In this document: piece after piece, positions 553 to 14,714 of the stretch
Position numbering within the stretch: position 1 is the stretch's first letter
Layout: each line of letters begins with the position of its first letter
Assembly (NCBI GenBank): GCA_964561475.1
Contig: CAZLPU010000002.1
Coordinates: forward strand, 20,707-84,706
Direction: 5' to 3'
DNA: 64,000 nucleotides
From: an uncultured Alphaproteobacteria bacterium
Lineage (GTDB): Bacteria > Pseudomonadota > Alphaproteobacteria > JAJFIK01
Position numbers and translations under genes: made by a program
Notes under the pieces: generated by a model
What the model saw: the letters and a program-made list of their open reading frames with translations, nothing else
What the model was told of the DNA's origin: nothing
Databases searched by the model: none

Positions 553-1269
553 TCAGGAGAAGAGTTCCACATCTCCGGCCAGGGGCTCCCTGGCAAGACG
601 GGAGGTGTAGCGCCCTTCCTCCTCCACATGCTCATGGGCGGCGCCAGACTTGATCAGCCGACGCATCACCCGGCCTTCAACGGGACAATAGTGAATGCGC
701 CGGGCATGGAGGCCGCCCAGATCCTCACCGGCCACCTTCAGACCTTCCGCCCGGAGATATTCCAGAACAAAAGCCGCATTGCGCAGACCAACTGTATTGG
801 TGCCCGTTGTCACCTGCCCGCCCCCGAAAACCTTGATTTCAAGCCGCTCCTTGGGGCATCCCCACCGGGTCACCTCATTGATCAGCCGTTCCATGGCAAA
901 GGTGCCGTAGCGCAGGGCCGAGAGATCGGTTCTGCTGCCGTCGGTCTGATCGGGGAGCATGAAATGGTTGAGGCCGCCAAAACCCGTGGCCGGGTCACGC
1001 ATGCAGGCGGCCACGCAGGACCCGAGAATGGTGACCACCATGTCCTGCGGATCCCCGGTCACGTAAAAGCCGCCGGGTAGGACCTTCACCATCCATCGGC
1101 CCATCTGACCATTGTGGAAGCGGTGAAAAAGCTCCCCCCGAGGAGCATGTCGGGCCGGACGCCCGTCTCTTTGGACTGCCGGCCCCTGTACTGTTGGCCC
1201 TTGGACTGGGGACCTTTGGACTGGGGTGCCTGGAGCTGGGGGCGTGTGATCTGCCGATGCCGGGCTCAT
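553..1269 (-). CDS. cheD: Chemoreceptor glutamine deamidase CheD
   Basis: [29 protein letters not shown] and C-terminal GDVELF motifs. The ATG at 1269 overlaps the cheR stop (TGATG). Confidence 0.93.
1171..1228 (-). repeat. Degenerate 15-bp tandem repeat in the cheD N-terminal extension
   Basis: Encodes [19 protein letters not shown]. Confidence 0.6.
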
Positions 1270-2195
1270 CAGCCAGCCACCTTGCGGTAGGTGGTCCGTC
1301 CACAAAGGGTCAAGGGCAGGCCCGCCAGGGCCACCGTTTCCGAATGACCAATATACAGATACCCTCCCGGGCGCAGAAACTCGGCCAGACGTGCCACAAG
1401 CGCCTGTTTGGTTTGCGTATCGAAGTAGATCATCACGTTACGGCAGAAAATCGCGTCGAACCATCCGGTCATGGGCCATCTCTCCAGAAGGTTCAACGGT
1501 TTGAAGGTAATCATGGAACGGACCTCGTCCCCTATGGCGATCTCCTCGCCTCCGGGAACGGGCCTTGTATAGGTCTGATAACAGCCAGGGATCTTCTCGA
1601 GACATTCCCGGGGATAGTGCCCCCGAGCCGCCACATCCAGAATGCGGGTGTTGATATCCGTGGCCAGGATCCGGCTATCCAGCAGTCCGGCCGCCTGGGA
1701 ATTTTCCGACATCATCTGTAGAAGGATGACGGCGATGGAATAGGGTTCCGCCCCGTCTGAGCAGGCCGCCGACCAGATCCGCAGTTTGCGCCCCGGTCTG
1801 CCCCCTCCCTGATGATCCGGTACACCCTGCTCCCGTACACCGTCCTTGATCATGGGGGAGAGGACATGTTGGGCCAGGTGATCCAGGTGGTGGCTCTCCC
1901 GGAAGAAGGCCGTATGGTTCGTCGTCAGACGATTGACCAGGGTTTCAACCTCGCCGCTCAACGGATCACCAAGCCGGGCCCGATAGGCGGCGAAACTGTC
2001 CAGACCCAGATGTCTCAGGCGACGGGCCAGACGGGCATAGACCAGATCCGCCTTCGAGCGGGTCAGGCTGATCCCCACCTTGGCGTAGAGGATTTCGGCA
2101 ATCGCTTCGAAATCCTCCACCGTGAAGGCAAATTCCCGTTCCCCGGACGGCCTTGTGGCGCGTGCCGGAACCGCTCTGGCACCGCCAGCCGCCAT
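1269..2195 (-). CDS. cheR: Chemotaxis protein methyltransferase CheR
   Basis: LTTNHTAFFRE, RIWSAACSDGAEPYS, ILATDI, FDAIFCRNVMIYF and GHSE motifs. Confidence 0.95.
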   Translation of the reverse strand: MAAGGARAVPARATRPSGEREFAFTVEDFEAIAEILYAKVGISLTRSKADLVYARLARRLRHLGLDSFAAYRARLGDPLSGEVETLVNRLTTNHTAFFRESHHLDHLAQHVLSPMIKDGVREQGVPDHQGGGRPGRKLRIWSAACSDGAEPYSIAVILLQMMSENSQAAGLLDSRILATDINTRILDVAARGHYPRECLEKIPGCYQTYTRPVPGGEEIAIGDEVRSMITFKPLNLLERWPMTGWFDAIFCRNVMIYFDTQTKQALVARLAEFLRPGGYLYIGHSETVALAGLPLTLCGRTTYRKVAG

Positions 2196-2197
2196 GC

Positions 2198-4819
2198 CTA
2201 GAATTCCTTCCAGTCCGGATCATCCTCAACCGCGACCGCAAGAGCGCTCTGCATGGCCCGGGCGGGACCGGGTCTGGTCCGCCGCTCCGGGTCCTGATCG
2301 ACCCTGGCCTGGATGGCCACGCCCCGGCCCCCATCCTCCCTGAACTGAGGGACGGCGGTCACCACACCGGTCTGTGACGCGGTGTCCAGGGTGAAAAAGT
2401 CCACCCGCTGCTGCATATTGATGGCCTGATCCCGCAGCGTCTTGGCCGCCGCGGCGTTTTCCTCCACGAGGGCGGAGTTCTGCTGGGTCATCTCATCCAT
2501 CTGGGTGACCGCACCACTGATCTCCTCCACCCCTGTCGCCTGTTCCCGGCTGGCCGCGGCAATCTCGGAGACGATATCGGTCACGTTCTTGATGGCCCCG
2601 ACGATCTGCTCCAGCGCTTCTCCGGTCCGGTTCACGAGGGAAACCCCATCAGCGACCTGATCCGTACTGTGAACGATCAGATCCTTGATGTCCTTTGCCG
2701 CCTGGCTGGAGCGCTGGGCCAGATTGCGCACTTCCGAGGCCACCACGGCGAAGCCGCGCCCCGCATCCCCCGCCCGGGCCGCCTCGACCGCGGCATTCAG
2801 GGCAAGGAGGTTGGTCTGGAAGGCAATCTCGTCAATCACCGTGGTGATCTCGGTGATCTTGGAAGACGAATGTTCAATATCTGACATGGCCCGGACGGCT
2901 TTGGAGACCACTTCGCCGCCGGCGGTCGCCGCGTCCCTGGCTCCAAGAGCCAGTTGGTTGGCCTGAACCGCACTTTCGGCATTGCGCTTGACCGTTGCGG
3001 AAATCTCGTCCATGGCCGCGGCGGTCTCTTCCAGGTTCGATGCTTGCTGCTCCGTACGCTGAGACAGATCGGCAGTTCCCGAAGAAATGTCCGCTGCCGC
3101 ATTGGAGACTTCCGTGGCGGCACTCTTGATCTGTCCGACAATTTCCGTCAGCTGCGCCGACATGGCATTTGTATTGATCTGAATCTGATCGAAAATGCCC
3201 TGGTAGCTCCCGTCCATGCGCCGGGTCAGGTCACCACCGGACAGGGAAGAAATCACGGAGACGAGGGAGTCCATGGCGGCACCGATCCGCTCACAGACAT
3301 CATTCATTGCGGACGCGAGGGAGAGCATGAACCCGGTCTTGCCCTCAAGGCTCACGCGCTTGGTGAAATCGCCGTTGGCGACCGCACCCACCACCATATC
3401 AATCTCCGCCTGGATCGAGCGTTCGGCGGTCTCGTCGCGCCATTCAACAACGGTGCCCAGCCTCTGGCCCTCCTCATCCCGGATAGGGCTTGCAATCAGC
3501 ACGAGAGACCGTCCGCCCAGGGAGAGTTCGATCTGGCGGGGAACGGTGAGGGTTTGGAGAATGTTGCGCTGATGGGCCGGGTTCTTGTGGAACAGATCGA
3601 TATTGCTGCCCATCATCGTGCGCGCGTCAAACTGGGGGAGGTCCTTGCGAATGTCCGACTCAGCCGTCTGCAACATCCTTTCCACTGCCGGATTCGAGTA
3701 GACGAGATTGTTGTCCTCGTCCGCAATCAGAACATTGGACGTGCAGGAATCGAGGGCGGCGCGGACACGGAGGTTTTCCCGCGCGAAGGCTTCCTGGCGC
3801 CGACGTTCGGCCATCTGTTCTGTGATGTTGTTTGCGAACTTCACCACCTTGACCGGCTTGCCGTCCTTATCCAGAATTGCATTATAGGAGGCCCGGAGCC
3901 AGACTTCCTGCCCATTCTTGTCGAACCGGGCATATTCGCCGGCATGGAAATCGCCTCGGCGCAAGGTTTCCCAGAAATCCCGATACTCCGAAGACCGCCC
4001 ATAATCGGGATCGACGAACATGGAGTGATGACGGCCGACAATCTCCTCGAGCCGGTAGCCGGTCACCGCGAGGAAGTTCTGGTTGACGGTGAGGATCGTG
4101 CCGTCCATATCAAACTCGATCATGGCCTGATCGCGGCTCAGTGCCTTGACGATCCCATCGGCCATATCCGTAAGAGGGGCAGCCTCATTCCGGGCGGGCG
4201 GGATTTTCCACTCCATGAGCACCCCGCCAGCCCGTCCGATGGCCGGATCAAGGGGGCTCAAGACCACATCCACGGTCTCGCCCCCGAGCGCAATCCGGGT
4301 CGTGTACGGGGTACGGAGCAGCTCAAGTGCCGTCCGGTCTTCCTGCGCCACCAGCAGACTCTCGAGCGGCATTCCCACCACCGTGTCGGCCCGCAGGCCC
4401 GGAAACACCCGTGCAATATCCGCGGACCGGTCGTGGAGAAACTGAACCATGGCATTGTTGGCATACACAACACGACCGGTTCCATCAGTAGTCAGAACAG
4501 GATCTGCACACTGATCGAGCGCGCGCAATGCCCGGTCAGAGCCTGCTGACTGCACACGCAATCGCTGGACGGGGGGCACAATGGCCACACATGCCGCTCC
4601 AATCGCTACAATCTGCATGAGGATGACAGGAAGCAGACCGACAAAGGGCTGTAAAGCGGTCAGAGTGGCCAGTGTGGTGGCAAGGACGGCACCGGTGGCC
4701 AGGAGACGGTGCAAAGACGTTATGCCCTGATGCCCATCGGCGCGTGCGCTTGGGCGTCCATGGCCGGCAACAACGGGTGATACGGCTGGAGTGCCGGAAA
4801 CAGTGTCTACTGATGACAT
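2198..4819 (-). CDS. Multi-PAS methyl-accepting chemotaxis protein (Aer2/McpB-like) with a C-terminal pentapeptide
   Basis: Three PAS-like segments including [17 protein letters not shown]-like segments, the MCP hairpin [20 protein letters not shown] and C-terminal DWKEF. Start chosen at ATG 4819. Confidence 0.92.
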
Positions 4820-4893
4820 GATGGTCTGCCTCTTGTCTTCATATATGCCAAAGACCGGCAGCGGGAAGGCCGCCGGAAACATCCCGGCTCTGA

Positions 4894-5484
4894 TCAGGTG
4901 GTCAATGGGCTGCCAAGTGTGGTGCCGGAGAGATGGTGGAGATCAAGAAGCGCGATCATCTGCTCATTCACGGTCACCAGACCGGAGAGATAATCCACGC
5001 CGACAAGTCCGCAGGTCTGGGGAACGGGCTGGAACCGCTCCGTATCCACTTGCAGAATGTCTGAAACCCGGTCGACGAGCAGTCCAACAAGGCGCTCTTC
5101 GATTTGTACGATGATCACCACATGGGTCGGTGTGGCATCGGTCAGGCCCTGGCCGAACTTGCAGCGCAGATCAATGATGGGCACCACCACGCCGCGCAGA
5201 TTGAGCACACCACGCACAAAGGTGGGCTGATTGGGCAACCGGGTAACTTCGGTCCAACCCTTGATCTCACGCACCGCGATTATATCGACGCAGTAGTATT
5301 CATCATCAATCGCGAAGCTGATGAACTGGGCGGCGGCATTGGCGTCGGAACGCGCAGGATCGGCCGTCCCCGTTTCATTGATTTGGGACCCACTGGTTCT
5401 CATCCCGCCAGCGCCCGAGCCCGCCGCCAGACCGGACTCTTGATCCGTTGACGGCTCGATAGTGACTGCCTCTGCCGCGTTCAT
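4894..5484 (-). CDS. cheW: Chemotaxis coupling protein CheW
   Basis: [23 protein letters not shown] and [10 protein letters not shown] motifs. Start overlaps the cheA stop (ATGA). Confidence 0.95.
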
Positions 5485-7610
5485 GCCGCGATTTCTCCCT
5501 GTTCTGACTGGCTCAAGGCAGATCCGTCCGCCTCCGCCATGCCGGCATCCTTGTCGTCGAACCATGACCCCGGCCCGGTTGGACCGGTGAGGTCTCCACC
5601 GTCACCGGATTGTCCGGACATACCGCTCAGTGCATCCACATCGATGATCAACGCCACCCGTCCGTCGCCCAGAATGGTGGCGCCGGAGATGCCTTCGATG
5701 CTGTGATAGTTCTCGTCCAGGCTCTTGATCACCACCTGCTGCTGGTTCAAGAGATCATCCACAACAAGCCCCACCTTGCGCCCCGATTCCGTCTCGACAA
5801 GGACAACCAGGGCATCCTGGGCATTCCCCGACGAGGCACCGGCCCCAAGTCTCTGGCGCAAATGGATCAGGGGGACGAATTCCCCCCGGTTGGAAAGCAC
5901 TTCCTGCCCCGCGCCCAATCGGCGCAAGTCCCGGCGCTGGGGCCGCACACATTCCAGAATACCGGTCAGGGGAAGGATGTAGCGTTCCGTCCCTACCATG
6001 ATCAGCATGCCGTCCAATACCGCGAGGGTCAGCGGCAGGGTGAGGATGAATTTGGTCCCCTTGCCCGGCAGGGTCTCAATGGCGATGCGCCCGCCCAGTG
6101 CCTGGATGTTACGGCGCACCACGTCCATGCCCACGCCCCGTCCGGAGATATCGCTCACCTCCCGGGCCGTGGAAAAGCCTGGAGCAAAGACAAGCTGGTC
6201 AATGTCTCCGGGCGCCATGGTTGCGGCACTGTCCGCGCTGATGAGACCACGTTCGACCGCACGGGTACTGACGGCCTCCCGGTCGATGCCCCTGCCGTCA
6301 TCGGCGACACAAATGACGATGCGCCCGCTGCGATGCTCAGCAGACAATTCAATGGTGCCGGTCTCGGGTTTGCCCGCGCCGACCCGATCCTCCGGCGTTT
6401 CCAGCCCGTGATCGAGGGCATTGCGGATCATATGGGTCAGGGGATCGCTCAATTCCTCGATGACCGTCTTGTCGACTTCCGTTTCCTCGCCCCTGGTCTT
6501 CAAGGTGACCTTTTTGCCCAACCGGTCGCTCAAGTCACGGACCACCCGGGGCATCCGGGAGAAGACGGACTTGACCGGCTGCATACGGATTGCCATGACG
6601 CTTTCCTGCAGCTCCCGGGTGCGCAGGGTCAGATCCTCAAGACCGCGCAATTGGGACAGATCACTGACCTGGGCTGTTTCGGAGATGTTCTGCAGGACCA
6701 TGGACTGGGCGATGACCAGCTCACCAACCATGTTCACGAGCCGGTCCAGGCGGACGAGATCCACACGGATGGATGAGGTTCTCGGCGCTCCGGTCTGGGA
6801 CAGGACAGCCTGATTGTCCTCGCCCGACAGTTCCGCATCTGCCGGCCTCTGTGGGGCGCTTGCGCCTTCTGGGGCGTTGCGTGGGGATCCGGGATCACGG
6901 TTGAGGGCTTCGACACTCAGATCACAATCATCGCTGACGAATTCGAAGACGGCCCGGATCTCGTCAAGACTGGCCTCGGTCTCAAGATCGATCCGCCAGC
7001 CCAGATAACAGATTTCCGGATCGAACCGATCGAGACCAGGAAGCCTGGAGAGATCCGGAGTGACTGACGCCTGCCCCAGGGCGCAAAGCTCAGCCAACAA
7101 ATTGAGAGGCTCATTGCCGAACCGCAGAAGCGTCTCACCGGGTTGGAAGATGACCCGCACCTTGCCCGCCGCCCCACCATGCTCTTCCGCTTCCGGAGCA
7201 ACGGGAGCCGTCTCCGGTCCGGTTTCCATCTCCTTGAGCCGGCCAAGTACCGCCCGCTCATGGTCGGGCGCGTAGTATTGTTCCCCCTGAGCGTCGGTCA
7301 CAAGATCGTGGAGCATGTCCACCGCGCGCACCAGAAGGCTGGTCAGATCTTCCGTGAGGATGATCTGCCTGGAGCGTACCTTTTCGAGAACCGCCTCGAA
7401 GCTGTGGGTGTAGGTGACCAGCCGGTCGAAGCCGAAAGCGCCCGCCCCCGCCTTGATGGAATGAACCGCACGGAAGATCGAGTTCAGCTTTTCCGTATCA
7501 CGCTCGTCCGGCTCGAGAGTCACCACATACCCGGCAAGCCCCTCGAGCAGTTCGGCGCATTCGTCGAAATAGGTCTGTTTCAGGTGCTCGAACTGTCCGG
7601 TCCGGTCCAT
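5481..7610 (-). CDS. cheA: Chemotaxis histidine kinase CheA
   Basis: Hpt motif FRAVHSIKAGAG, SIRVD, HMIRNALDHG, SGRGVGMDVV and a C-terminal CheW-like domain. Confidence 0.96.
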   Translation of the reverse strand: MDRTGQFEHLKQTYFDECAELLEGLAGYVVTLEPDERDTEKLNSIFRAVHSIKAGAGAFGFDRLVTYTHSFEAVLEKVRSRQIILTEDLTSLLVRAVDMLHDLVTDAQGEQYYAPDHERAVLGRLKEMETGPETAPVAPEAEEHGGAAGKVRVIFQPGETLLRFGNEPLNLLAELCALGQASVTPDLSRLPGLDRFDPEICYLGWRIDLETEASLDEIRAVFEFVSDDCDLSVEALNRDPGSPRNAPEGASAPQRPADAELSGEDNQAVLSQTGAPRTSSIRVDLVRLDRLVNMVGELVIAQSMVLQNISETAQVSDLSQLRGLEDLTLRTRELQESVMAIRMQPVKSVFSRMPRVVRDLSDRLGKKVTLKTRGEETEVDKTVIEELSDPLTHMIRNALDHGLETPEDRVGAGKPETGTIELSAEHRSGRIVICVADDGRGIDREAVSTRAVERGLISADSAATMAPGDIDQLVFAPGFSTAREVSDISGRGVGMDVVRRNIQALGGRIAIETLPGKGTKFILTLPLTLAVLDGMLIMVGTERYILPLTGILECVRPQRRDLRRLGAGQEVLSNRGEFVPLIHLRQRLGAGASSGNAQDALVVLVETESGRKVGLVVDDLLNQQQVVIKSLDENYHSIEGISGATILGDGRVALIIDVDALSGMSGQSGDGGDLTGPTGPGSWFDDKDAGMAEADGSALSQSEQGEIAA

Positions 7611-7670
7611 GACGGGGCCTTCCTCCAGTAGTATCGCATTCAGACCGGCGGCCGGTCCTGGCCGCAAACC

Positions 7671-8036
7671 TCAGTGACAAACCTTGTTGACGACCTGAAG
7701 CAGCTTCTCGGGATCGAACGGCTTGACGATCCAGCCGGTCGCGCCGGCGGACCGGCCCTCCTGGCGCTTGGTGCCGTCACTCTCCGTGGTGAGAATAAGA
7801 ATGGGTGTGCCCTTAAAGTCCGGCCGCTCCCGGATTTTCCGTACCAGGGAGATACCGTCCAGCTTGGGCATGTTCACATCCGTGATGATCAGATCGAACC
7901 TGCCGTCGCCCAGTTTTTCAAGGGCGTCAACACCGTCACAGGCCTCGACAACGGTGAATCCCGCTCCCTGAAGGGTCAGGGCCACCATGTCCCGCATGGT
8001 GCGGGAGTCGTCGACTGCAAGGATTCTTTGGGTCAT
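7671..8036 (-). CDS. cheY: Single-domain response regulator CheY
   Basis: ILAVDDS, ITDVNMP, ILILTTES and GWIVKPF; lies directly upstream of cheA. Confidence 0.93.
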   Translation of the reverse strand: MTQRILAVDDSRTMRDMVALTLQGAGFTVVEACDGVDALEKLGDGRFDLIITDVNMPKLDGISLVRKIRERPDFKGTPILILTTESDGTKRQEGRSAGATGWIVKPFDPEKLLQVVNKVCH

Positions 8037-8516: not shown

Positions 8517-8819
8517 GGCGGGTTCACATCTTGTTGAGTGCAGGCGGCACGGGATCCCGATCCCGAGAAACTCGAAGCTCAAGGGCGGGACACGGGAGCT
8601 TCCCGCTCCAGAAGCGTGCCCCTAGTGGACCCGAACGCTGTAAAGGGCGGGTTAAGCGCGAATCGGTGGTGGCGGCATGTCCATACAATTCGGCCCGGGA
8701 TGTGCTCGGGCCGGTCCGGAAAGTCCCGCCTATGCAGGGGAACAATGAATCGCCATGATCACGGGATTGATAGGAAAAGCGGCTTACCGGCGCGTGAGAC
8801 ACTGACGAGAGGGTTGACC

Positions 8820-9593
8820 ATGAAACGCAGAGACATCTCCCAGGACCGCGGCCTGATCAGCCGGCGTCAGGTTCTTTCGCAATCGGGGATTGCCCTTGGT
8901 CTCGGTGCCACAGGGTTGGGCGCCACGGGTCTGGGTTTGACCGCCGGACCGGCCCATGCCGTGTTCGGAAATGATGCGGTTGACGCCCAGGCCCTGGTGG
9001 ATCGGTCCAAGGCATCGGTTTCCGTCTTCGCCGCGGATTCCCAGATGGCCTGGGTGCGCAACAATCTCTCCCGTGCGCGGGCTCTGATGATCATTCCGGA
9101 ATCCGTGCGGGGCGGCTTCATCATCGGCGGCAGCGGCGGCAGTGGCGTGCTCCTGGCCCGGGGGGACTGGCTCCAGGGGTGGAGCTATCCGGCCTTCTAC
9201 GCCATGGGCTCGGTCACATTCGGTTTGCAGATCGGCGGCCAGATTTCTGAAATCATTTTGATGGTGATGACCGATAACGGTCTTGACCACTTGCTGACGA
9301 CCAACTTCACCTTGGGCGCCGAAGTGAGCGTCGCGGCGGGTCCTGTGGGTGCGGGCGCATCCGCTCAGACCGCCGATATTCTGGCCTTTGCCCGCACCAA
9401 GGGGCTTTATGGCGGGCTGAACATTGAGGGCGCGGCAATCCGCATCCGGAACCGCTACAATGAGGTGTATTACAACCAGCCCGGTGTCCGGCCTCGGGAC
9501 ATTCTGCTCACCCGCACCGTCTCCAATCCCCAGGCCAATGACCTGCGCCGCGCCGTCGGAGCCCTTGGCCGGAGCGCGACCGAGGAACTGTGA
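8820..9593 (+). CDS. Lipid-binding SYLF (Ysc84) domain protein with a Tat-like signal
   Basis: GGFIIGGSGGSGVL, WSYPAF, GLQIGGQ and KGLYGGLNIEGA motifs. SRRQVL twin-arginine followed by a hydrophobic stretch ending AHA. Confidence 0.88.
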   Translation: MKRRDISQDRGLISRRQVLSQSGIALGLGATGLGATGLGLTAGPAHAVFGNDAVDAQALVDRSKASVSVFAADSQMAWVRNNLSRARALMIIPESVRGGFIIGGSGGSGVLLARGDWLQGWSYPAFYAMGSVTFGLQIGGQISEIILMVMTDNGLDHLLTTNFTLGAEVSVAAGPVGAGASAQTADILAFARTKGLYGGLNIEGAAIRIRNRYNEVYYNQPGVRPRDILLTRTVSNPQANDLRRAVGALGRSATEEL

Positions 9594-9994: not shown

Positions 9995-10927
9995 TCAGCT
10001 GTTGAGCTTCGTGGTGAGCCTGTCGATGATGCTGTGCACTTCTTCTGCGAACGCACTCGCCGCAGGCGGCAGCACCCGTCCTTCCAGACTGGCGATCACC
10101 AGATCCACTGGTTCCGTATGCTCGTAATCGTCCACGGGCAGGACGGCAACCCGGCCGCTCTTGACATCCTTATGGAACACCGTGAAGGGCGCCAGTGCGA
10201 CTGCATCACTGCCGGCAATCAGTGAGCTGAGGACAGAGAAGTCCTCGGTGGTCAGGAACATGTTCCGCATGTCTTCAAGGTCAGGCAGGATGTCGTCAAT
10301 GAAGGGGTGCAGGCGGCGGATGAACCAGTCCGGCGCATCACCACCCATGAGCGGATACTGGATCACATCCGCCAGGGTGACCTTTTCCAGTTCGAACAGC
10401 GGGTGGCCCGTCCGTACCGCGATGACCGGAGGCGGGCAACTCAGATAGTCGATGTCGATACCCGGCGGCACAATGTCCGGCGCCGGACCAATGAATAGAT
10501 CCACGGATTTGGACCGCAGGGCCTCAGCCATTTCCCGCCAACTGACATTCTTCAGATTGAAGCGCAGTTTCGGGTAGACCTTCATCAAATGGAGCAGGCA
10601 CGGGCCCGCTAGAAACTCCGAAACGGTCGGTTCACAGCCGATGGACAGGCGCCCGCCCTCGAGATTGCGCAACAGGTCGATCTCCCGCTCCGCATGGGAG
10701 AACCGTTCCAGCGCGCTCCGGGCTGCATCGACCAACATCTGGCCGTAGACCGTGGGATACACACCCTTGCGGGTGCGCGCGAAAACAGGCACGCCATAAG
10801 TGTCCTCAAGCTTACGCACAGTCTGGCTCAGCGCCGAGTGGGTGATACCCAGCCGGTCTGCTGCCTGACGGAAATGACCTTGATCCGCCAGAGTCACCAG
10901 TTGCTTCAGGATCCGTAAAACCTCCAC
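9995..10927 (-). CDS. LysR family transcriptional regulator
   Basis: N-terminal HTH GHFRQAADRLGITHSALSQTVRKLE, 310 aa, substrate-binding C-terminus. Confidence 0.93.
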   Translation of the reverse strand: MEVLRILKQLVTLADQGHFRQAADRLGITHSALSQTVRKLEDTYGVPVFARTRKGVYPTVYGQMLVDAARSALERFSHAEREIDLLRNLEGGRLSIGCEPTVSEFLAGPCLLHLMKVYPKLRFNLKNVSWREMAEALRSKSVDLFIGPAPDIVPPGIDIDYLSCPPPVIAVRTGHPLFELEKVTLADVIQYPLMGGDAPDWFIRRLHPFIDDILPDLEDMRNMFLTTEDFSVLSSLIAGSDAVALAPFTVFHKDVKSGRVAVLPVDDYEHTEPVDLVIASLEGRVLPPAASAFAEEVHSIIDRLTTKLNS

Positions 10928-11295
10928 GGCGTACCCTCGCCCCTCCCAAAATCAATCATACCGAAATACGGCCACCGCCCGACCGGTGTATGCCGCATCG
11001 CACAAAACCGATTATAGCTGAACCGCATCAAAAATGGAGATGTAGACTTTTCACCTGCTTTGTGGGCGGTCACAGAGTATGCGCCGAGCGGCTACATCCC
11101 ACAGGTTTTGATACAATAGGCAAGCATGTATCCATTGACGAGCCCAAACATACACTTGTGCGAATGTTTTCCCTCTTCCGACACCTGACCGTTGAATTTC
11201 AATGGGTTCTGCGCCGGCACGCCTGGGCATGCTCAAGCAGCGGACCGGGCCACCGCCGCTAAGCCGCCGCCAGGGTGCGACCCACGGCCCCCCTC

Positions 11296-12144
11296 TCAAT
11301 TCCAATCGAGATAGTTCGCGACGATGTCATCCTCGTCACGAAAAAACCGGAAGAACGAGGGGTATTGGCGCTCCAGAAAATCGCGCTTGGCCTCGATGCG
11401 CAGATTGAGCATCTGCCGGCGGGCAAAAAGCCAGCCCTCGATGGCAATCCCCAGGATCACAAGGATCCACGCCCCTCCATAAACATAAATCGGCTCTGCG
11501 AGAGAGGCGTAATCTACAAACCCGCCACCGAGCAAAATCAGAATGCCCGGTGTGGCAATAATATATTGGATGATGGAGAACTGGCGCTCCCGTTCGCGGA
11601 TCAGGTCCATGTAATCGGTGTAATCCTTACCGATCAGCCGCACCAATTCGGACATTCTGACTTTCTCAAGTCCCGGGGGGAACTCGGTCCGTTTGTATGA
11701 GGCTAGAAGATCCGCAGTCCGTGCTTCGATATCGGCGGAATAGACCCGCTCGTCGTTTGGGGTCGTGGTCTTGAGCCGCTTGATGATCCGCGCCATGGCG
11801 GGGTCGGCACAATCCCCGGCCCACTCGAACAGATTGACATGGAGGCTGGCGTTGAATGGCGGGTGAAGGGCGCAATCCTCGATCCGGCAGGACACCAGCT
11901 TGTCTTCATCGAAGGCGATCATGGCCTCGGAATTGACCCAGCGGCTGTTTACCGAGCTGCGGGACCAGATCACCAGAACCGCCCGGGATGCATCCAGTTC
12001 CTGGCGGATCATGGCGAGAAAATTGTCCCCGATTTCGATCCCGTCGTCATACCAGACCGACAGGCCGGCTGCCCGGATGCAGTCCGCGATCCGGGCCACG
12101 GTTTCCCGGTCCTCGTGCTTGTAACTGATGAATACGTCCGCCAT
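11296..12144 (-). CDS. TIR domain protein with two C-terminal transmembrane helices
   Basis: DVFISYKHED...VWYD...AVLVIWSRSSVNSRWVNSEA (TIR_2 with catalytic-position Glu). Hydrophobic segments IIQYIIATPGILILLGGG and IYVYGGAWILVILGIAIEGWLF. Confidence 0.88.
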   Translation of the reverse strand: MADVFISYKHEDRETVARIADCIRAAGLSVWYDDGIEIGDNFLAMIRQELDASRAVLVIWSRSSVNSRWVNSEAMIAFDEDKLVSCRIEDCALHPPFNASLHVNLFEWAGDCADPAMARIIKRLKTTTPNDERVYSADIEARTADLLASYKRTEFPPGLEKVRMSELVRLIGKDYTDYMDLIRERERQFSIIQYIIATPGILILLGGGFVDYASLAEPIYVYGGAWILVILGIAIEGWLFARRQMLNLRIEAKRDFLERQYPSFFRFFRDEDDIVANYLDWN

Positions 12145-12149
12145 GGCCC

Positions 12150-13595
12150 CTACTCTCCCCAGCCTTGTCCGACCAGGGCCTGCCCGAGCATCTCAGGCCC
12201 AAGGCCGCCGCGGATCGCCGTGATCCTCCGGCGCGTCTGGGCCACTTCATCCCGGCGGATCGGAATGAGCCCCATGCCGTCCGCCCCGCCTTCCGGGTTC
12301 TGCGCATCACCCACGATGTTGAAGCGGTTGGGCACCATGGACAGGGCGTCCACAGAGAACAGACTGAACAGGAACCAGCCCAGGGGATCCACGCCCCTCA
12401 ATTCCGGGCGCCGCTCCGCACCCTGTGCATTGAGCGCAAAGGCACGGGCATGGCGCTCCTTGACATAAAGAAAGAGCGGGCGGGTCAGGGGATAGCGTTC
12501 CTCGCGCATGGCGGTCTGGGACGGCTCCACGCCATCGATGGCAACAGTCCCCAGGCCAAAATCCCGGCCCTGGCGGTTATAGGACAGGGAACTGACGATA
12601 CCGATTGCCGGGCCACTGATCCGCTCCAGGAACGACAGGTCGTCCTCTGACTCCGTGGGGAACCAGGCATTATCTGCACCGGGACGGACCTCATCGCGCA
12701 GAGCGGAGACCCGCCGGTGGAACCCGGCCGGATCCGCCCCGGCAAGATCGCGCATGCAGGGCACGGTCATGGCGCCGGCCCTGAGCGCCTTCTCCACGAA
12801 GATGGCGCGGGTCCCGGACTTCGCACCGGGGCCCGTCATCCGGATGGGCCAGGCTCGGCCATCCAGGCGGATGGCACGCCCGGCGACCTGGCTCCATGTC
12901 GTATAGGGATTATCCACGAACTCGCAGGAACCGGTGGCATACAGATCCGCAGGGACCTGTTCCGCCAGGGCGAGATAGAGATCCCTCGAGGTCAGGTTCA
13001 AGGTGCCGTTGCGGGCCTCGGTGACGAGCACCACCGCGTCATAACCGAATTTGAGTTCAGCAATCGGACCAATCCCCGCATTCCGGCATTCCTGGAGAAC
13101 AGCCTCGTTCAAGGGTGCGGACATGGCCACGAGATCGAAGGCGCCGGAACCCTTCAGGCAGAATTCACTGCGGGCCCCCACGGAGCCGATCGACTTGTAT
13201 TCAAAAAGCTCTTCCTGACGGAACTGAAAGACCGGCGCGGCGGGTCCCGAACCGGCTTCAGCACCCCGGAACCGCCGGGAAATGTCCCGGTTGATGTCGT
13301 CCCGGACCGCTTCCTTCACCACAAAGATGATGGGACGGATGGAGGAGGATCCCCCGAAGCGGACCTTGATCCGGTTGATCTCCGGCAGACAGGCATCACC
13401 GCACACCATGCCCAGGGACTGGATCCCCAGACAACAGTCGAGCCACCGGCACAGGCTCTGGCGCAAATCCGACCAGTACACCGCCAGGGCCGCCAGCAGG
13501 CTCAATGTCAGGAACAGCCAGAACCGGCTGCGGCGTCTGCGCGGTTTTGTTCCTTTTTTCCCGCGCTTGGCGCCCAAGTCACCCCCTTGGGTCAT
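12150..13595 (-). CDS. Divergent PstS-like substrate-binding protein with an N-terminal membrane anchor
   Basis: GGSSSIRP, ELKFGYDAVVL, GPGAKSGTRAIF and YPLTRPLFLYVK resemble alphaproteobacterial PstS. Basic N-terminus plus TM segment FWLFLTLSLLAALAVYW. Confidence 0.8.
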   Translation of the reverse strand: MTQGGDLGAKRGKKGTKPRRRRSRFWLFLTLSLLAALAVYWSDLRQSLCRWLDCCLGIQSLGMVCGDACLPEINRIKVRFGGSSSIRPIIFVVKEAVRDDINRDISRRFRGAEAGSGPAAPVFQFRQEELFEYKSIGSVGARSEFCLKGSGAFDLVAMSAPLNEAVLQECRNAGIGPIAELKFGYDAVVLVTEARNGTLNLTSRDLYLALAEQVPADLYATGSCEFVDNPYTTWSQVAGRAIRLDGRAWPIRMTGPGAKSGTRAIFVEKALRAGAMTVPCMRDLAGADPAGFHRRVSALRDEVRPGADNAWFPTESEDDLSFLERISGPAIGIVSSLSYNRQGRDFGLGTVAIDGVEPSQTAMREERYPLTRPLFLYVKERHARAFALNAQGAERRPELRGVDPLGWFLFSLFSVDALSMVPNRFNIVGDAQNPEGGADGMGLIPIRRDEVAQTRRRITAIRGGLGPEMLGQALVGQGWGE

Positions 13596-13814
13596 GTCCC
13601 ACCTCTCATGATGCGGATCATGGTTTGGCCCCGGCGAAACCGCCCACGGTCCGCGCCGTTCCGCCCGTCGCCAGGTCCCGCGTACGGCGCAAAGGACCAT
13701 GGCTTGACCAAGCCTGCAAGCACAGGATGAGCGGCCTCACCGGGGCCATGACCGGCCCCGGATTGACGACGCGCAAAAAAGGTGGAGACAGAGAGCGTTA
13801 GACGAACCGGGCGC

Positions 13815-14714
13815 TCAGTCCTTCTGTTTGGACTGTTCTTCGATGAGCTGTTCGATCCGGGCCTGGGCCTCTTCCTGGGTGAAGCCCAGCATGGCAAGGA
13901 TGGGGCTCTCCGCGCCCCGGTTCCAGGAATGGGGATGGCCCGAAGTGAGCCCCCCATCCACGACAAAATGCTGTCCCGTGACGAAAAAACTTTCCTGGCT
14001 TGCCAGGAACAGGGCCGTATTGGCGATGGCATCGGGGGATCCGGCCACGGGCAGGGCCTGCATATAGGGGCCGAATTCCGTCTCGATGCGGGCAGCCAAT
14101 TGGTCGGAGGAGTTCCGGTCCAGACCGATGGAGTCCCCGAATATGGACGTGGCGATCAAGCCCGGGCAGATGGCGTTCACCCGTATGCGCATCTGGGCCA
14201 GATCCATGGCTGCGGCCTTGGAGAAATGGATAACCGCGGCCTTGGCCGTGGAATAGGCCGTCGGCCCCCAGCCCGCCTGAAGCCCCGCAATGGATGCGGT
14301 ATTGATAATGGAGCCGCCGCCACGGGCCTTCATGTGGGGCACGGCAAATTTGGTGCCCGCCGCCACGGACCGGACGAGGAGATTGAAGGTCCAGTCCCAG
14401 GCCTCCATGCTCACTTCATCGATGGCGCCAAGGCCGCCACCGGCACCGGCATTGTTGAACACCACGTCCAGACCGCCGAACCGGTCGGCGGCACCGTCAA
14501 TCAGAACACGGATATCCTCGACCCGGGTCACGTCACAGCGGGTATAGGTGACCCGGCCGGGAAACCGTTGCTCCAGAATGGCGCCCTTTTCATCCTGAAT
14601 GTCGCCCACGGCCACCGACGCGCCCTCGGCCACGAACCGTTCAACCGCCGCAAGCCCGATTCCGGAACAGCCCCCGGTGATGACCGCAATCTTGTTCTCC
14701 AACGCATCAGCCAT
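13815..14714 (-). CDS. SDR family oxidoreductase
   Basis: TGGCSGIG, NNAG, YSTAK and IRVNAICPG motifs. Confidence 0.93.
   Translation of the reverse strand: MADALENKIAVITGGCSGIGLAAVERFVAEGASVAVGDIQDEKGAILEQRFPGRVTYTRCDVTRVEDIRVLIDGAADRFGGLDVVFNNAGAGGGLGAIDEVSMEAWDWTFNLLVRSVAAGTKFAVPHMKARGGGSIINTASIAGLQAGWGPTAYSTAKAAVIHFSKAAAMDLAQMRIRVNAICPGLIATSIFGDSIGLDRNSSDQLAARIETEFGPYMQALPVAGSPDAIANTALFLASQESFFVTGQHFVVDGGLTSGHPHSWNRGAESPILAMLGFTQEEAQARIEQLIEEQSKQKD

Follow-up and report, generated by a model that had tools for sequence, protein, structure and literature searches.

A PstS-like binding protein and a membrane-anchored TIR protein as possible halves of a split bacterial receptor

The window (the whole stretch of 64,000 nucleotides that was analysed) contains two neighbouring genes on its minus strand. 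The first encodes a PstS-like protein with a PBP_like_2 domain (481 aa; positions 12150..13595, stop codon 12150-12152), the second a protein of 282 aa that consists of a TIR domain followed by two membrane helices and is called TIR-2TM in the following (11296..12144, stop codon 11296-11298). Only five nucleotides (GGGCC, 12145..12149) lie between the TAG stop codon of the PstS-like gene and the ATG of the TIR gene, which confirms the original prediction of a closely spaced, co-oriented pair. The ATG of the PstS-like gene at 13595 is preceded by the Shine-Dalgarno sequence GAGGTGG, and the Shine-Dalgarno-like run GGGGAGAG of the TIR gene is located inside the last codons of the PstS-like gene. 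The five-nucleotide spacing suggests that the two genes are translated in a coupled manner. The junction between them is covered, with no differences, by independent contigs from four DNA runs that belong to one study, and the GC3 of the pair (0.77 and 0.73) is typical for the genes of this genome.

Neither pstCAB and phoU nor other ABC genes adjoin the pair, as had been noted originally. The direct neighbours encode a LysR regulator and an SDR, and chemotaxis and acyl-CoA dehydrogenase genes are found close by. No mobile or defence genes were detected among the neighbours by a Pfam run on ten genes around the pair, which lie mostly on the chemotaxis side and include the SDR gene and one acyl-CoA dehydrogenase gene. 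The same genome possesses a complete phoR-pstSCAB-phoU-phoB operon on another contig (G000:C25), so that the description of the window protein as an orphan, repurposed PstS-like protein stands. Promoter and terminator scans of positions 10800-14000 gave nothing that exceeds shuffled sequences. With up to three mismatches, the E. coli Pho-box consensus matched the window four times, versus 3.71 expected matches, and none of these is near the pair; since the same consensus also gives no match at the genome's own pst locus, it says nothing about the pair. In four genomes of the same genus the SDR neighbour is conserved (72-74% identity), the LysR neighbour was not found at 1e-60 and no orthologs of the two window proteins were found. 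The surroundings of the pair have no local gene order in common with these congeners, and no insertion boundary could be drawn.

The PstS-like protein starts with a basic tail (residues 1-24, KRGKKGTKPRRRRSR, 13524..13595, minus strand) that is predicted to be cytoplasmic. It is followed by a hydrophobic helix of 17 residues (25-41, 13473..13523) and a juxtamembrane cluster of five cysteines (C49, C54, C55, C65 and C69; 13389..13451). Tail and cysteine cluster are present as predicted. The transmembrane anchor held up only in part: the hydrophobic stretch exists, but it is short, its hydropathy peak of 1.58 stays below 1.6 (19-residue window) and its C-terminal end reads A-L-A, so that it may be a membrane anchor or, possibly, a cleavable signal peptide. 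The AlphaFold model predicts a helix at residues 22-56 and has low pLDDT at residues 61-69.

Residues 78-460, approximately, constitute according to the alignments a PstS-type Venus-flytrap domain with insertions (12216..13364). It matches PBP_like_2 (PF12849) with 58.2 bits (cut-off 27, 1.4e-15). The AlphaFold model of the protein (pLDDT 80.2, pTM 0.76) has the two-lobe PstS fold, and the top 49 PDB rows of a Foldseek search with it are all phosphate-binding proteins, with 9JWY as the best (3.2e-20, TMt 0.78). We had also considered a C-terminal extension, which was dropped, as the tail aligns with the normal C-terminus of PstS and an insertion lies in between. Ten longer PstS-like matches (439-486 aa) were inspected for extra domains, and all ten contain only PBP_like_2; two still longer matches are PstS-PstC fusions.

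In CpPstS (PMC12421899), phosphate is hydrogen-bonded by Ser32, Ser33, Thr34, Thr61, Ser83, Gly174 and Thr175. The equivalents in the window protein are S83, S84, S85, S138, S159, G261 and T262, i.e. five of these seven positions are identical and two are Thr-to-Ser exchanges. Next to the ligand serine, within the ASR motif, the window protein has Ala160 where 28 of 30 aligned relatives have Arg. The originally reported MSAPL in place of ASR is therefore correct, and the flanking Arg is indeed lost; the broader claim of an altered ligand region is overstated, as all seven positions are kept or exchanged between Ser and Thr. The Arg itself does not occur in the ligand list of the paper. Four further cysteines of the flytrap domain (146, 170, 224 and 280) are invariant in all eight sequences compared, which fits an oxidising compartment, and the YPLTRPLFLYVK motif is kept as well.

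The TIR domain of the second protein comprises residues 1-126 (11767..12144, minus strand), as delimited by phmmer alignments to PdTIR (3H16) and AbTir (7UWG/8G83). It matches TIR_2 with 82.1 bits (cut-off 28, 5.9e-23), pLDDT across the domain is 79-96 per block of ten residues, mostly above 90, and the best Foldseek match of the model is the active AbTir filament 7UXU. The original prediction that the glutamate is kept (WVNSEA) proved right: WVNSE aligns to the W-x3-E catalytic motif of AbTir, with W69 (11938-11940) at the position of W204 and E73, the catalytic position (11926-11928), at that of E208. The roles of these two AbTir residues are described in bioRxiv 10.1101/2022.05.07.491051. 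In the BB-loop the glycine is kept (G39) and Asn41 stands at the serine position; G174 and S176 of AbTir are needed for assembly. Judged by its catalytic positions, the domain is probably a TIR of the NAD+-cleaving type.

A helical linker (residues 127-188, 11581..11766), modelled with low confidence, connects the TIR domain to a two-helix membrane hairpin (TM1 189-209, TM2 219-241; 11422..11580). The hairpin is evident from hydropathy and translation, in line with the original prediction of two helices, and the model places helices at 164-209 and 218-260. The loop between TM1 and TM2 consists of nine residues (VDYASLAEP). This loop is the periplasmic part of the protein and would offer little docking surface if the helix of the PstS-like protein were a cleaved signal peptide. 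The C-terminal cytoplasmic tail (residues 242-282, 11299..11421) is weakly similar to the tail of a paralog at G000:C117 (second BLASTP segment, E 1e-04), and the linker is partly alignable with a TIR-2TM homolog from genome G006. An ESM Atlas search with residues 120-282 gave no usable match.

The relatives nearest to both proteins include single open reading frames with a TIR domain, one transmembrane helix and a PstS-like domain. They occur in three sister genera (G006, G008 and G009; proteins P0003, P0004 and P0005), i.e. in three of the twelve genomes of the order, and in a word-indexed search PF13676 and PF12849 were found together in three of 45 matches. In a search of 1.84 billion representatives, the fusions rank fourth and sixth among the non-self matches to the window PstS-like protein, for which there is no match better than 2.1e-29 at 36% identity. 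The window proteins share 30-33% (PstS-like) and 41-44% (TIR) identity with the fusions. In the tree of the binding domains the window protein joins the clade that contains the fusions (SH-aLRT 94), although its position is unsure because of a very long branch (2.38), and the window TIR falls into one clade with the TIR domains of the fusions (SH-aLRT 90). When aligned to the fusions, the window PstS-like protein starts, with its basic tail, at the end of their TIR domain. The single transmembrane helix of the fusions lies at the place equivalent to its hydrophobic helix, all three fusions have conserved or Ser/Thr-exchanged residues at the seven CpPstS positions, and a C-x5-C occurs in the G009 fusion where the window protein has its cysteine cluster. 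Compared with the genuine PstS that the pst operon of the respective genome encodes, the sensor of the fusions is 44-46% identical.

The fusions contain the same two domain types in the same predicted topology, with TIR inside and the PstS-like domain outside. They differ from the window pair in being one polypeptide with one transmembrane helix, whereas the window has two genes and a TIR protein with its own two-helix anchor. The gene order in the window (first the binding protein, then TIR) is moreover opposite to the domain order of the fusions, which speaks against a simple fission. We propose that the window pair is akin to the single-chain TIR-TM-PstS proteins, from which it differs by a split, a rearrangement and fast evolution. 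Since the fusions are close to both window proteins, they support the originally suggested functional link and the Toll-like layout. The idea that each gene contributes one half of a membrane receptor, with a PstS-type sensor and a TIR output, has in our estimate an even chance of being right.

It is also possible, but rather unlikely, that the two genes are independent neighbours on a merely common transcript: a spare tethered or secreted phosphate-binding protein, used for scavenging, storage or feeding of PstCAB, next to a self-sufficient membrane TIR protein. The distribution of relatives is compatible with this. Both window proteins are sequence singletons, and no full-length relative of TIR-2TM was found. 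Without orthologs, conservation of the pair itself cannot be shown, and it is present in no other genome searched. The closest TIR-2TM homolog (G006:C48, its sister in the tree with SH-aLRT 91) has no PstS-like gene within a stretch of 10 kb, i.e. about 5 kb on each side, so that the TIR-2TM module can stand alone. The paralog G000:C117 likewise lacks such a partner in the DNA available. The originally envisaged co-occurrence outside this order was not found either: a PstS-like domain is encoded at none of 79 genome loci and none of 80 metagenome loci of related TIR proteins (159 in total). For these scans, which started from the fusions and from the TIR-2TM pair, the search patterns came from TIR alone, and hence TIR-only relatives were returned; a scan with the three fused binding domains matched 166 stretches and yielded no relatives. 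All support for the link between the two domain types comes from a single small order and from one or two evolutionary events there. That all phosphate positions are intact would suit a spare phosphate-binding protein, too. Nevertheless, the same domain types are fused in three sister genera in near relatives of both halves, and the short spacing suggests coupled translation. In addition, the window protein reaches only 46.4 bits with the PstS family model TIGR02136 of NCBIfam (curated cut-off 206.6), which, like the very long branch, is not what would be expected of an ordinary transporter PstS.

Several other TIR proteins were encountered in the course of these searches. G008:C160, itself a near TIR relative, was rejected as a TIR-2TM protein, since it is the start of a TIR protein that continues like the FGE-sulfatase type. 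The word-indexed search also shows N-terminal TIR domains with a downstream TPR, FGE-sulfatase, OmpA, Sel1 or DUF805 domain. The check for a membrane span between TIR and partner domain covered the three fusions and the TIR-2TM proteins.

A two-gene anti-phage system of the abortive infection type, in which the periplasmic protein detects an envelope infection cue and TIR-2TM responds by using up NAD+ or disturbing the membrane, appears improbable to us. The TIR domain has partial matches to defence models (PADLOC PDC-S66 6e-13, SAVED-TIR 1.3e-11 and ThsB 5e-06, besides the retron-TIR model of NCBIfam), and the genome contains 13 TIR_2 matches, several of them on antigen-sensor-like FGE-sulfatase proteins. 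Between genera, moreover, identity is lower for the sensor domains of the fusions (42-48%) than for the TIR domains (79-82%) and for canonical PstS (66-69%). However, the matches to defence models are all confined to the TIR core and far below the family cut-offs, and the PstS-like protein has no PADLOC match at all. The chemotaxis and metabolic genes around it lend no contextual support to the predicted defence role, the neighbours of the fusions are housekeeping genes as well, and a SIR2-type ThsA is absent from the genome.

Finally, we consider it very improbable that the PstS-like gene is a functionless remnant of a broken-up TIR-TM-PstS gene drifting under relaxed selection, since the extremely long branch, the several insertions, the loss of the near-invariant Arg and the absence of orthologs are set against two intact reading frames of normal GC3, retained ligand positions, structural cysteines and YPLTRPLFLYVK motif, a model that folds and the absence of variants in four environmental samples.

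The most likely explanation is that the pair is a split periplasmic receptor for phosphate or another oxyanion, a variant of modular bacterial TIR sensors. The sensor half would be a PstS-derived Venus-flytrap domain in the periplasm, held at the inner membrane by the N-terminal helix and a cysteine-rich stalk, and would bind phosphate, as we presume, or a closely related tetrahedral oxyanion. The output half, translated from the same mRNA, would be a TIR domain on the cytoplasmic side, of the type that cleaves NAD+ and with a two-helix hairpin as its anchor; it would be an active NADase and would bind to the sensor protein. Occupancy of the sensor by its ligand could alter the packing or clustering of the membrane-embedded parts, and this change could permit or prevent the assembly of TIR domains with one another, on which catalysis by TIR enzymes depends. 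Control of TIR oligomerisation, in the one direction or the other, would then convert the state of the external anion into NAD+ cleavage or a nucleotide signal made by the TIR domain. As to the function in the cell, we favour signalling in response to nutrients or at the envelope over phage defence.

More speculative, and in our opinion somewhat doubtful, is the wider idea that these proteins are true bacterial Toll-like nutrient receptors. Their PstS-type ectodomain would read periplasmic phosphate or a look-alike (arsenate, phosphite) and gate the assembly of a cytoplasmic TIR NADase. In this way the phosphate status outside the cell would be linked to the breakdown of NAD+ or to a nucleotide signal from the TIR domain, in the service of dormancy, the salvage of phosphorus or signalling at the envelope. 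The receptors would be single-chain in three genera and split into two subunits with a fast-evolving sensor in the window. So far, nearly all work on bacterial TIR domains has dealt with them as cytoplasmic components of anti-phage systems. If the idea is true, a periplasmic solute-binding input would drive a TIR output across the membrane in response to an extracellular small molecule. In the library of full-text papers that was searched, no description of a TIR-PstS or TIR-solute-binding-protein architecture was found, and the N-terminal TIR proteins with varied downstream domains hint at a possibly large class that has received no study. A simple test system would be at hand, since phosphate, the likely ligand, is a known compound that can be varied cheaply, and the single-chain relatives could serve as an internal control for the split version.

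Among the known systems, the PstS component of the PstSCAB importer is the closest to the window binding protein, which shares its fold and has CpPstS of SAR11 (PDB 9JWY) as its best match in both sequence and structure. The ligand positions GSS[ST], G[ST], S and SGT are kept. In contrast to PstS, the window protein is encoded away from pstCAB and falls well short of the TIGR02136 cut-off. In place of a plain signal peptide it has a basic tail, a hydrophobic helix and a cysteine cluster; it also contains insertions and has lost the conserved Arg. The TIR half resembles the TIR NADases AbTir, PdTIR and BtpA/TcpB, and also ThsB of the Thoeris system, in its TIR_2 fold, the W-x3-E motif and the BB-loop glycine, but its TIR domain is N-terminal, with a linker and a membrane hairpin behind it. 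Regarding Thoeris, Pfam ThsB_TIR matches with 25.4 (cut-off 21.2) under the stronger TIR_2 match, the best PADLOC model for ThsB gives the value mentioned above and NCBIfam ThcB4 reaches 22.9 versus 220. The TIR gene is flanked by the LysR and PstS-like genes and not by ThsA, SIR2_2 (PF13289) has no match in the whole genome, and no CBASS or Pycsar nucleotide cyclase was detected in the Pfam run on the ten genes around the pair.

Periplasmic solute-binding proteins whose genes lie beside that of a membrane protein, and which signal through it and not through an ABC transporter, are known from LuxP/LuxQ, TorT/TorS and PstS-dependent chemoreceptor signalling. The window pair differs in its output, a TIR domain and not a histidine kinase or chemoreceptor, and in a membrane partner almost without periplasmic surface. 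Animal Toll-like receptors combine an extracytoplasmic ligand-binding domain with leucine-rich repeats, a membrane span and a cytoplasmic TIR domain. Nothing argues for a common descent of the whole architecture, and the likeness would be one of analogy, not homology. The layout is found literally, in one chain, in the fusions of the sister genera but not in the window pair, which consists of two chains, and the ectodomain is of the PstS-type flytrap kind. If the proposed receptor is real, the control of a TIR domain by an extracellular cue would follow the same logic as in the animal Toll-like receptors.

We consider it an even chance that the two genes together encode a split membrane receptor, which is kin to single-chain TIR-TM-PstS receptors found nearby in the tree. 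Both open reading frames are co-oriented on the minus strand. That of the PstS-like protein extends over 12150-13700, and its likely start is the ATG at 13595, since GAGGTGG sits upstream, resulting in a protein of 481 aa. The TIR-2TM gene (11296-12144, 282 aa) follows after 5 nt (GGGCC between the stop codon TAG and the ATG), and GGGGAGAG lies within the final codons of the PstS-like gene, upstream of the TIR start. Coordinates, orientation, gap, domains and TM features were all re-found, so that the original prediction described the gene pair accurately. The junction is spanned with 0 differences by contigs that were assembled from four DNA runs, all belonging to a single study, and the arrangement is therefore not an assembly artefact. 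A high-depth contig in three runs matches only 24-26 nt each at 11263-11286 and 12503-12528, with 3162 other letters between the two matches; most likely it belongs to another organism that shares short words and is not a variant of the locus.

The PstS-like protein matches Pfam PBP_like_2 (1.4e-15, 58.2 bits at a cut-off of 27) and consists of a basic 24-residue tail, a 17-residue hydrophobic stretch, five clustered cysteines and the binding domain. With its modest length and its A-L-A end, the hydrophobic stretch may be no anchor but a signal peptide that is cleaved off. The AlphaFold model has the PstS fold (pLDDT 80.2, pTM 0.76), and the top 49 rows of a Foldseek search against the PDB are all phosphate-binding proteins, the first being PstS of SAR11 (9JWY). 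According to the available part of the source (PMC12421899), phosphate is bound in 9JWY by Ser32, Ser33, Thr34, Thr61, Ser83, Gly174 and Thr175, and Arg has no part in binding. Phmmer and MAFFT alignments place S83, S84, S85, S138, S159, G261 and T262 of the window protein at these positions. In 28 of 30 sequences, the ligand Ser is followed by Arg; this residue is indeed replaced, by Ala in the window protein and by Val in one single-chain relative. However, the ligand region is not altered in the sense originally proposed, because the phosphate-contact positions are kept, or in two cases swapped from Thr to Ser, and the exchanged Arg is no ligand in 9JWY, as far as that part of the source goes. 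Given these retained positions and the kinship to PstS, phosphate or a similar oxyanion is most likely the ligand, as judged from the sequence.

The TIR-2TM protein comprises an N-terminal TIR domain (Pfam TIR_2, 5.9e-23), a linker, the two predicted hydrophobic helices, 9 residues apart, and a 41-residue tail. It aligns with PdTIR and AbTir, and the Glu expected at the NADase position is in place, as W69 and E73 fall on W204 and E208 of AbTir, where, according to the available portion of the preprint (bioRxiv 10.1101/2022.05.07.491051), W204A is impaired and E208A inactive. Residues 1-126 are modelled with a pLDDT of 79-96 per 10-residue block, most blocks exceeding 90, and the structure that resembles this part most closely is that of the AbTir filament with a bound NAD+ mimic. 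For the linker and the membrane part, the model shows long helices, at low confidence.

The order of the window genome is small (12 sampled genomes, one family), and genomes of three of its other genera (G006, G008, G009) encode, in one open reading frame of 514-540 aa, an N-terminal TIR, then one hydrophobic helix and at the C-terminus a PstS-like domain. The window PstS-like protein starts, in the alignment, where the TIR domain of these fusions ends. Across the genomes of relatives, the fusions are the best non-self matches to the window PstS-like protein (35-40% identity), and they are among the best matches to the window TIR (41-44%). An exhaustive HMMER search of 1.84 billion representatives ranked fusions 4th and 6th among the non-self matches to the PstS-like protein. 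In a rapid maximum-likelihood tree built from 42 PstS-like sequences, this protein falls into a clade that also holds the three fusions as well as three soluble proteins (SH-aLRT 94), although its placement is unsure because of its very long branch (2.38). In a tree of 45 TIR domains, the window TIR stands beside a TIR-2TM protein of one of the fusion-bearing genomes (support 91), and both lie within a clade containing the TIRs of the fusions (90), which are themselves united with a support of 100.

All three fusions also retain the 9JWY ligand positions. In the fusion-related group, each of the 8 sequences has the same four cysteines, which suits a periplasmic location of the domain. From one of the three genera to another, identity amounts to 42-48% for the fused sensor, against 66-69% for canonical PstS and 79-82% for the fused TIR; within a genome, the fused sensor shares 44-46% identity with PstS of the pst operon. 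The sensor is released from the constraints of PstCA docking. The canonical PstS of the fusion-bearing genomes has an insertion of approximately 40 residues in the second lobe (for instance G009 pstS, locus L055, 3261-4460), owing to which search matches split into two segments.

The association does not extend far. A word-indexed search of 5.8 billion proteins with one fusion gave 45 matches, of which 3 carry TIR_2 and PBP_like_2 and 3 PBP only; in the other 39, an N-terminal TIR_2 stands alone or together with different Pfam domains (mostly TPR, but also FGE-sulfatase, OmpA, DUF805 and Sel1). Both window proteins are sequence singletons: the PstS-like protein finds only itself below 1e-30 (next match 2.1e-29, 36% identity), and every match to the TIR-2TM protein covers at most 63% of it. 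The four same-genus genomes contain no ortholog of either protein and share no local gene order around the pair. The closest TIR-2TM homolog (contig G006:C48; locus L002, 1501-2382) has the same TIR-linker-2TM-tail build and adjoins ccmA/ccmB divergently, with no PstS-like gene in a 10-kb stretch of about 5 kb on each side. A TIR-2TM paralog in the window genome (contig C117; locus L041, 4782-5840) ends 460 bp short of the contig end on its upstream side. An HMM from the PstS-like alignment, which recovered 5 of 5 positive controls, detected no such domain on the flanks of related TIR genes at 79 genomic loci (828 kb; best 80 of 482 confirmed stretches) or 80 metagenomic loci (511 kb; best 80 of 424). 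The link between TIR and PstS-like domains is therefore supported by no more than one or two events, all within one order. The expected co-occurrence holds for the fusions in three genera, but neither for the related TIR loci nor for the congeners. That the two genes are independent neighbours is a rather unlikely alternative.

The pair is flanked on one side by a chemotaxis cluster (CheD, CheR, PAS-HAMP-MCP, CheA and CheY; 553-8036, minus strand), a Ysc84-domain protein (8538-9593, plus strand), a small open reading frame without family and a LysR regulator, and on the other by SDR and acyl-CoA dehydrogenases. None of the flanking genes examined encodes an ABC transporter or PhoU, belongs to a mobile element or is recognisable as a defence gene. 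Since a complete phoR-pstS-pstC-pstA-pstB-phoU-phoB cluster is present on a different contig, the PstS-like gene is an extra copy, and its orphan status is confirmed. The E. coli Pho-box consensus has no match at the pst operon of this genome either, so that the lack of a match at the pair says little about a Pho box there. The PstS of this operon (L053/L054, contig C25) has HGTRE in place of SGTRD and, separate from the best PstS matches of the four congeners (L046-L049), groups with a PstS from a different family within the class (support 100).

A role of the pair in phage defence is somewhat less probable than mere neighbourhood: matches of the window TIR in the defence library are confined to the TIR core, and the genome contains no SIR2-type ThsA. 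Nutrient or envelope signalling seems to fit the context better. That the pair is a decaying remnant is improbable, the long branch of the PstS-like protein standing next to its intact ligand positions.

In a split receptor, one transcript would give rise to both subunits, a PstS-type sensor in the periplasm and a TIR protein anchored in the membrane. The way in which the membrane parts pack might then depend on the ligand and control TIR assembly, and the assembly state would determine NAD+ cleavage or signal production. This mechanism is modelled on the known behaviour of TIR enzymes, which require self-assembly for activity, as the available part of the AbTir filament study indicates (bioRxiv 10.1101/2022.05.07.491051).

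Both modules also turn up in other arrangements. Six proteins (P0077, P0085, P0089, P0103, P0109, P0184) share an N-terminus MNDDFLHR...PPxEF without Pfam match, followed by one membrane helix, a long low-complexity linker and a PstS-like domain with decayed GSST and SGT ligand motifs; they form a single clade (SH-aLRT 98) and look like a further case in which the PstS fold serves as a sensor tethered to the membrane. PstS and PstC occur in a single open frame of 688-831 aa in apparent fusions (P0099, P0165; L029 on G028:C28, L039 on G047:C2). The window genome itself has 13 TIR_2 matches to the TIR query (contigs C18, C51, C55, C58, C59, C62 (two), C71, C117, C125 and C17; loci L226-L235 and L041), and N-terminal TIR_2 domains head five FGE-sulfatase proteins, one Sel1-repeat protein, a second TIR-2TM protein and three related long proteins, one with a weak nSTAND_NTPase5 match.

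We found no description of a TIR domain paired with a periplasmic solute-binding domain in the main texts of the papers searched. The component families, PstS-type binding proteins and bacterial TIR domains, are known, and TIR domains are often part of modular proteins in which their partners vary. The novelty lies in a TIR output that is paired with a solute-binding domain of the periplasm, both as a fusion and as two separate chains.
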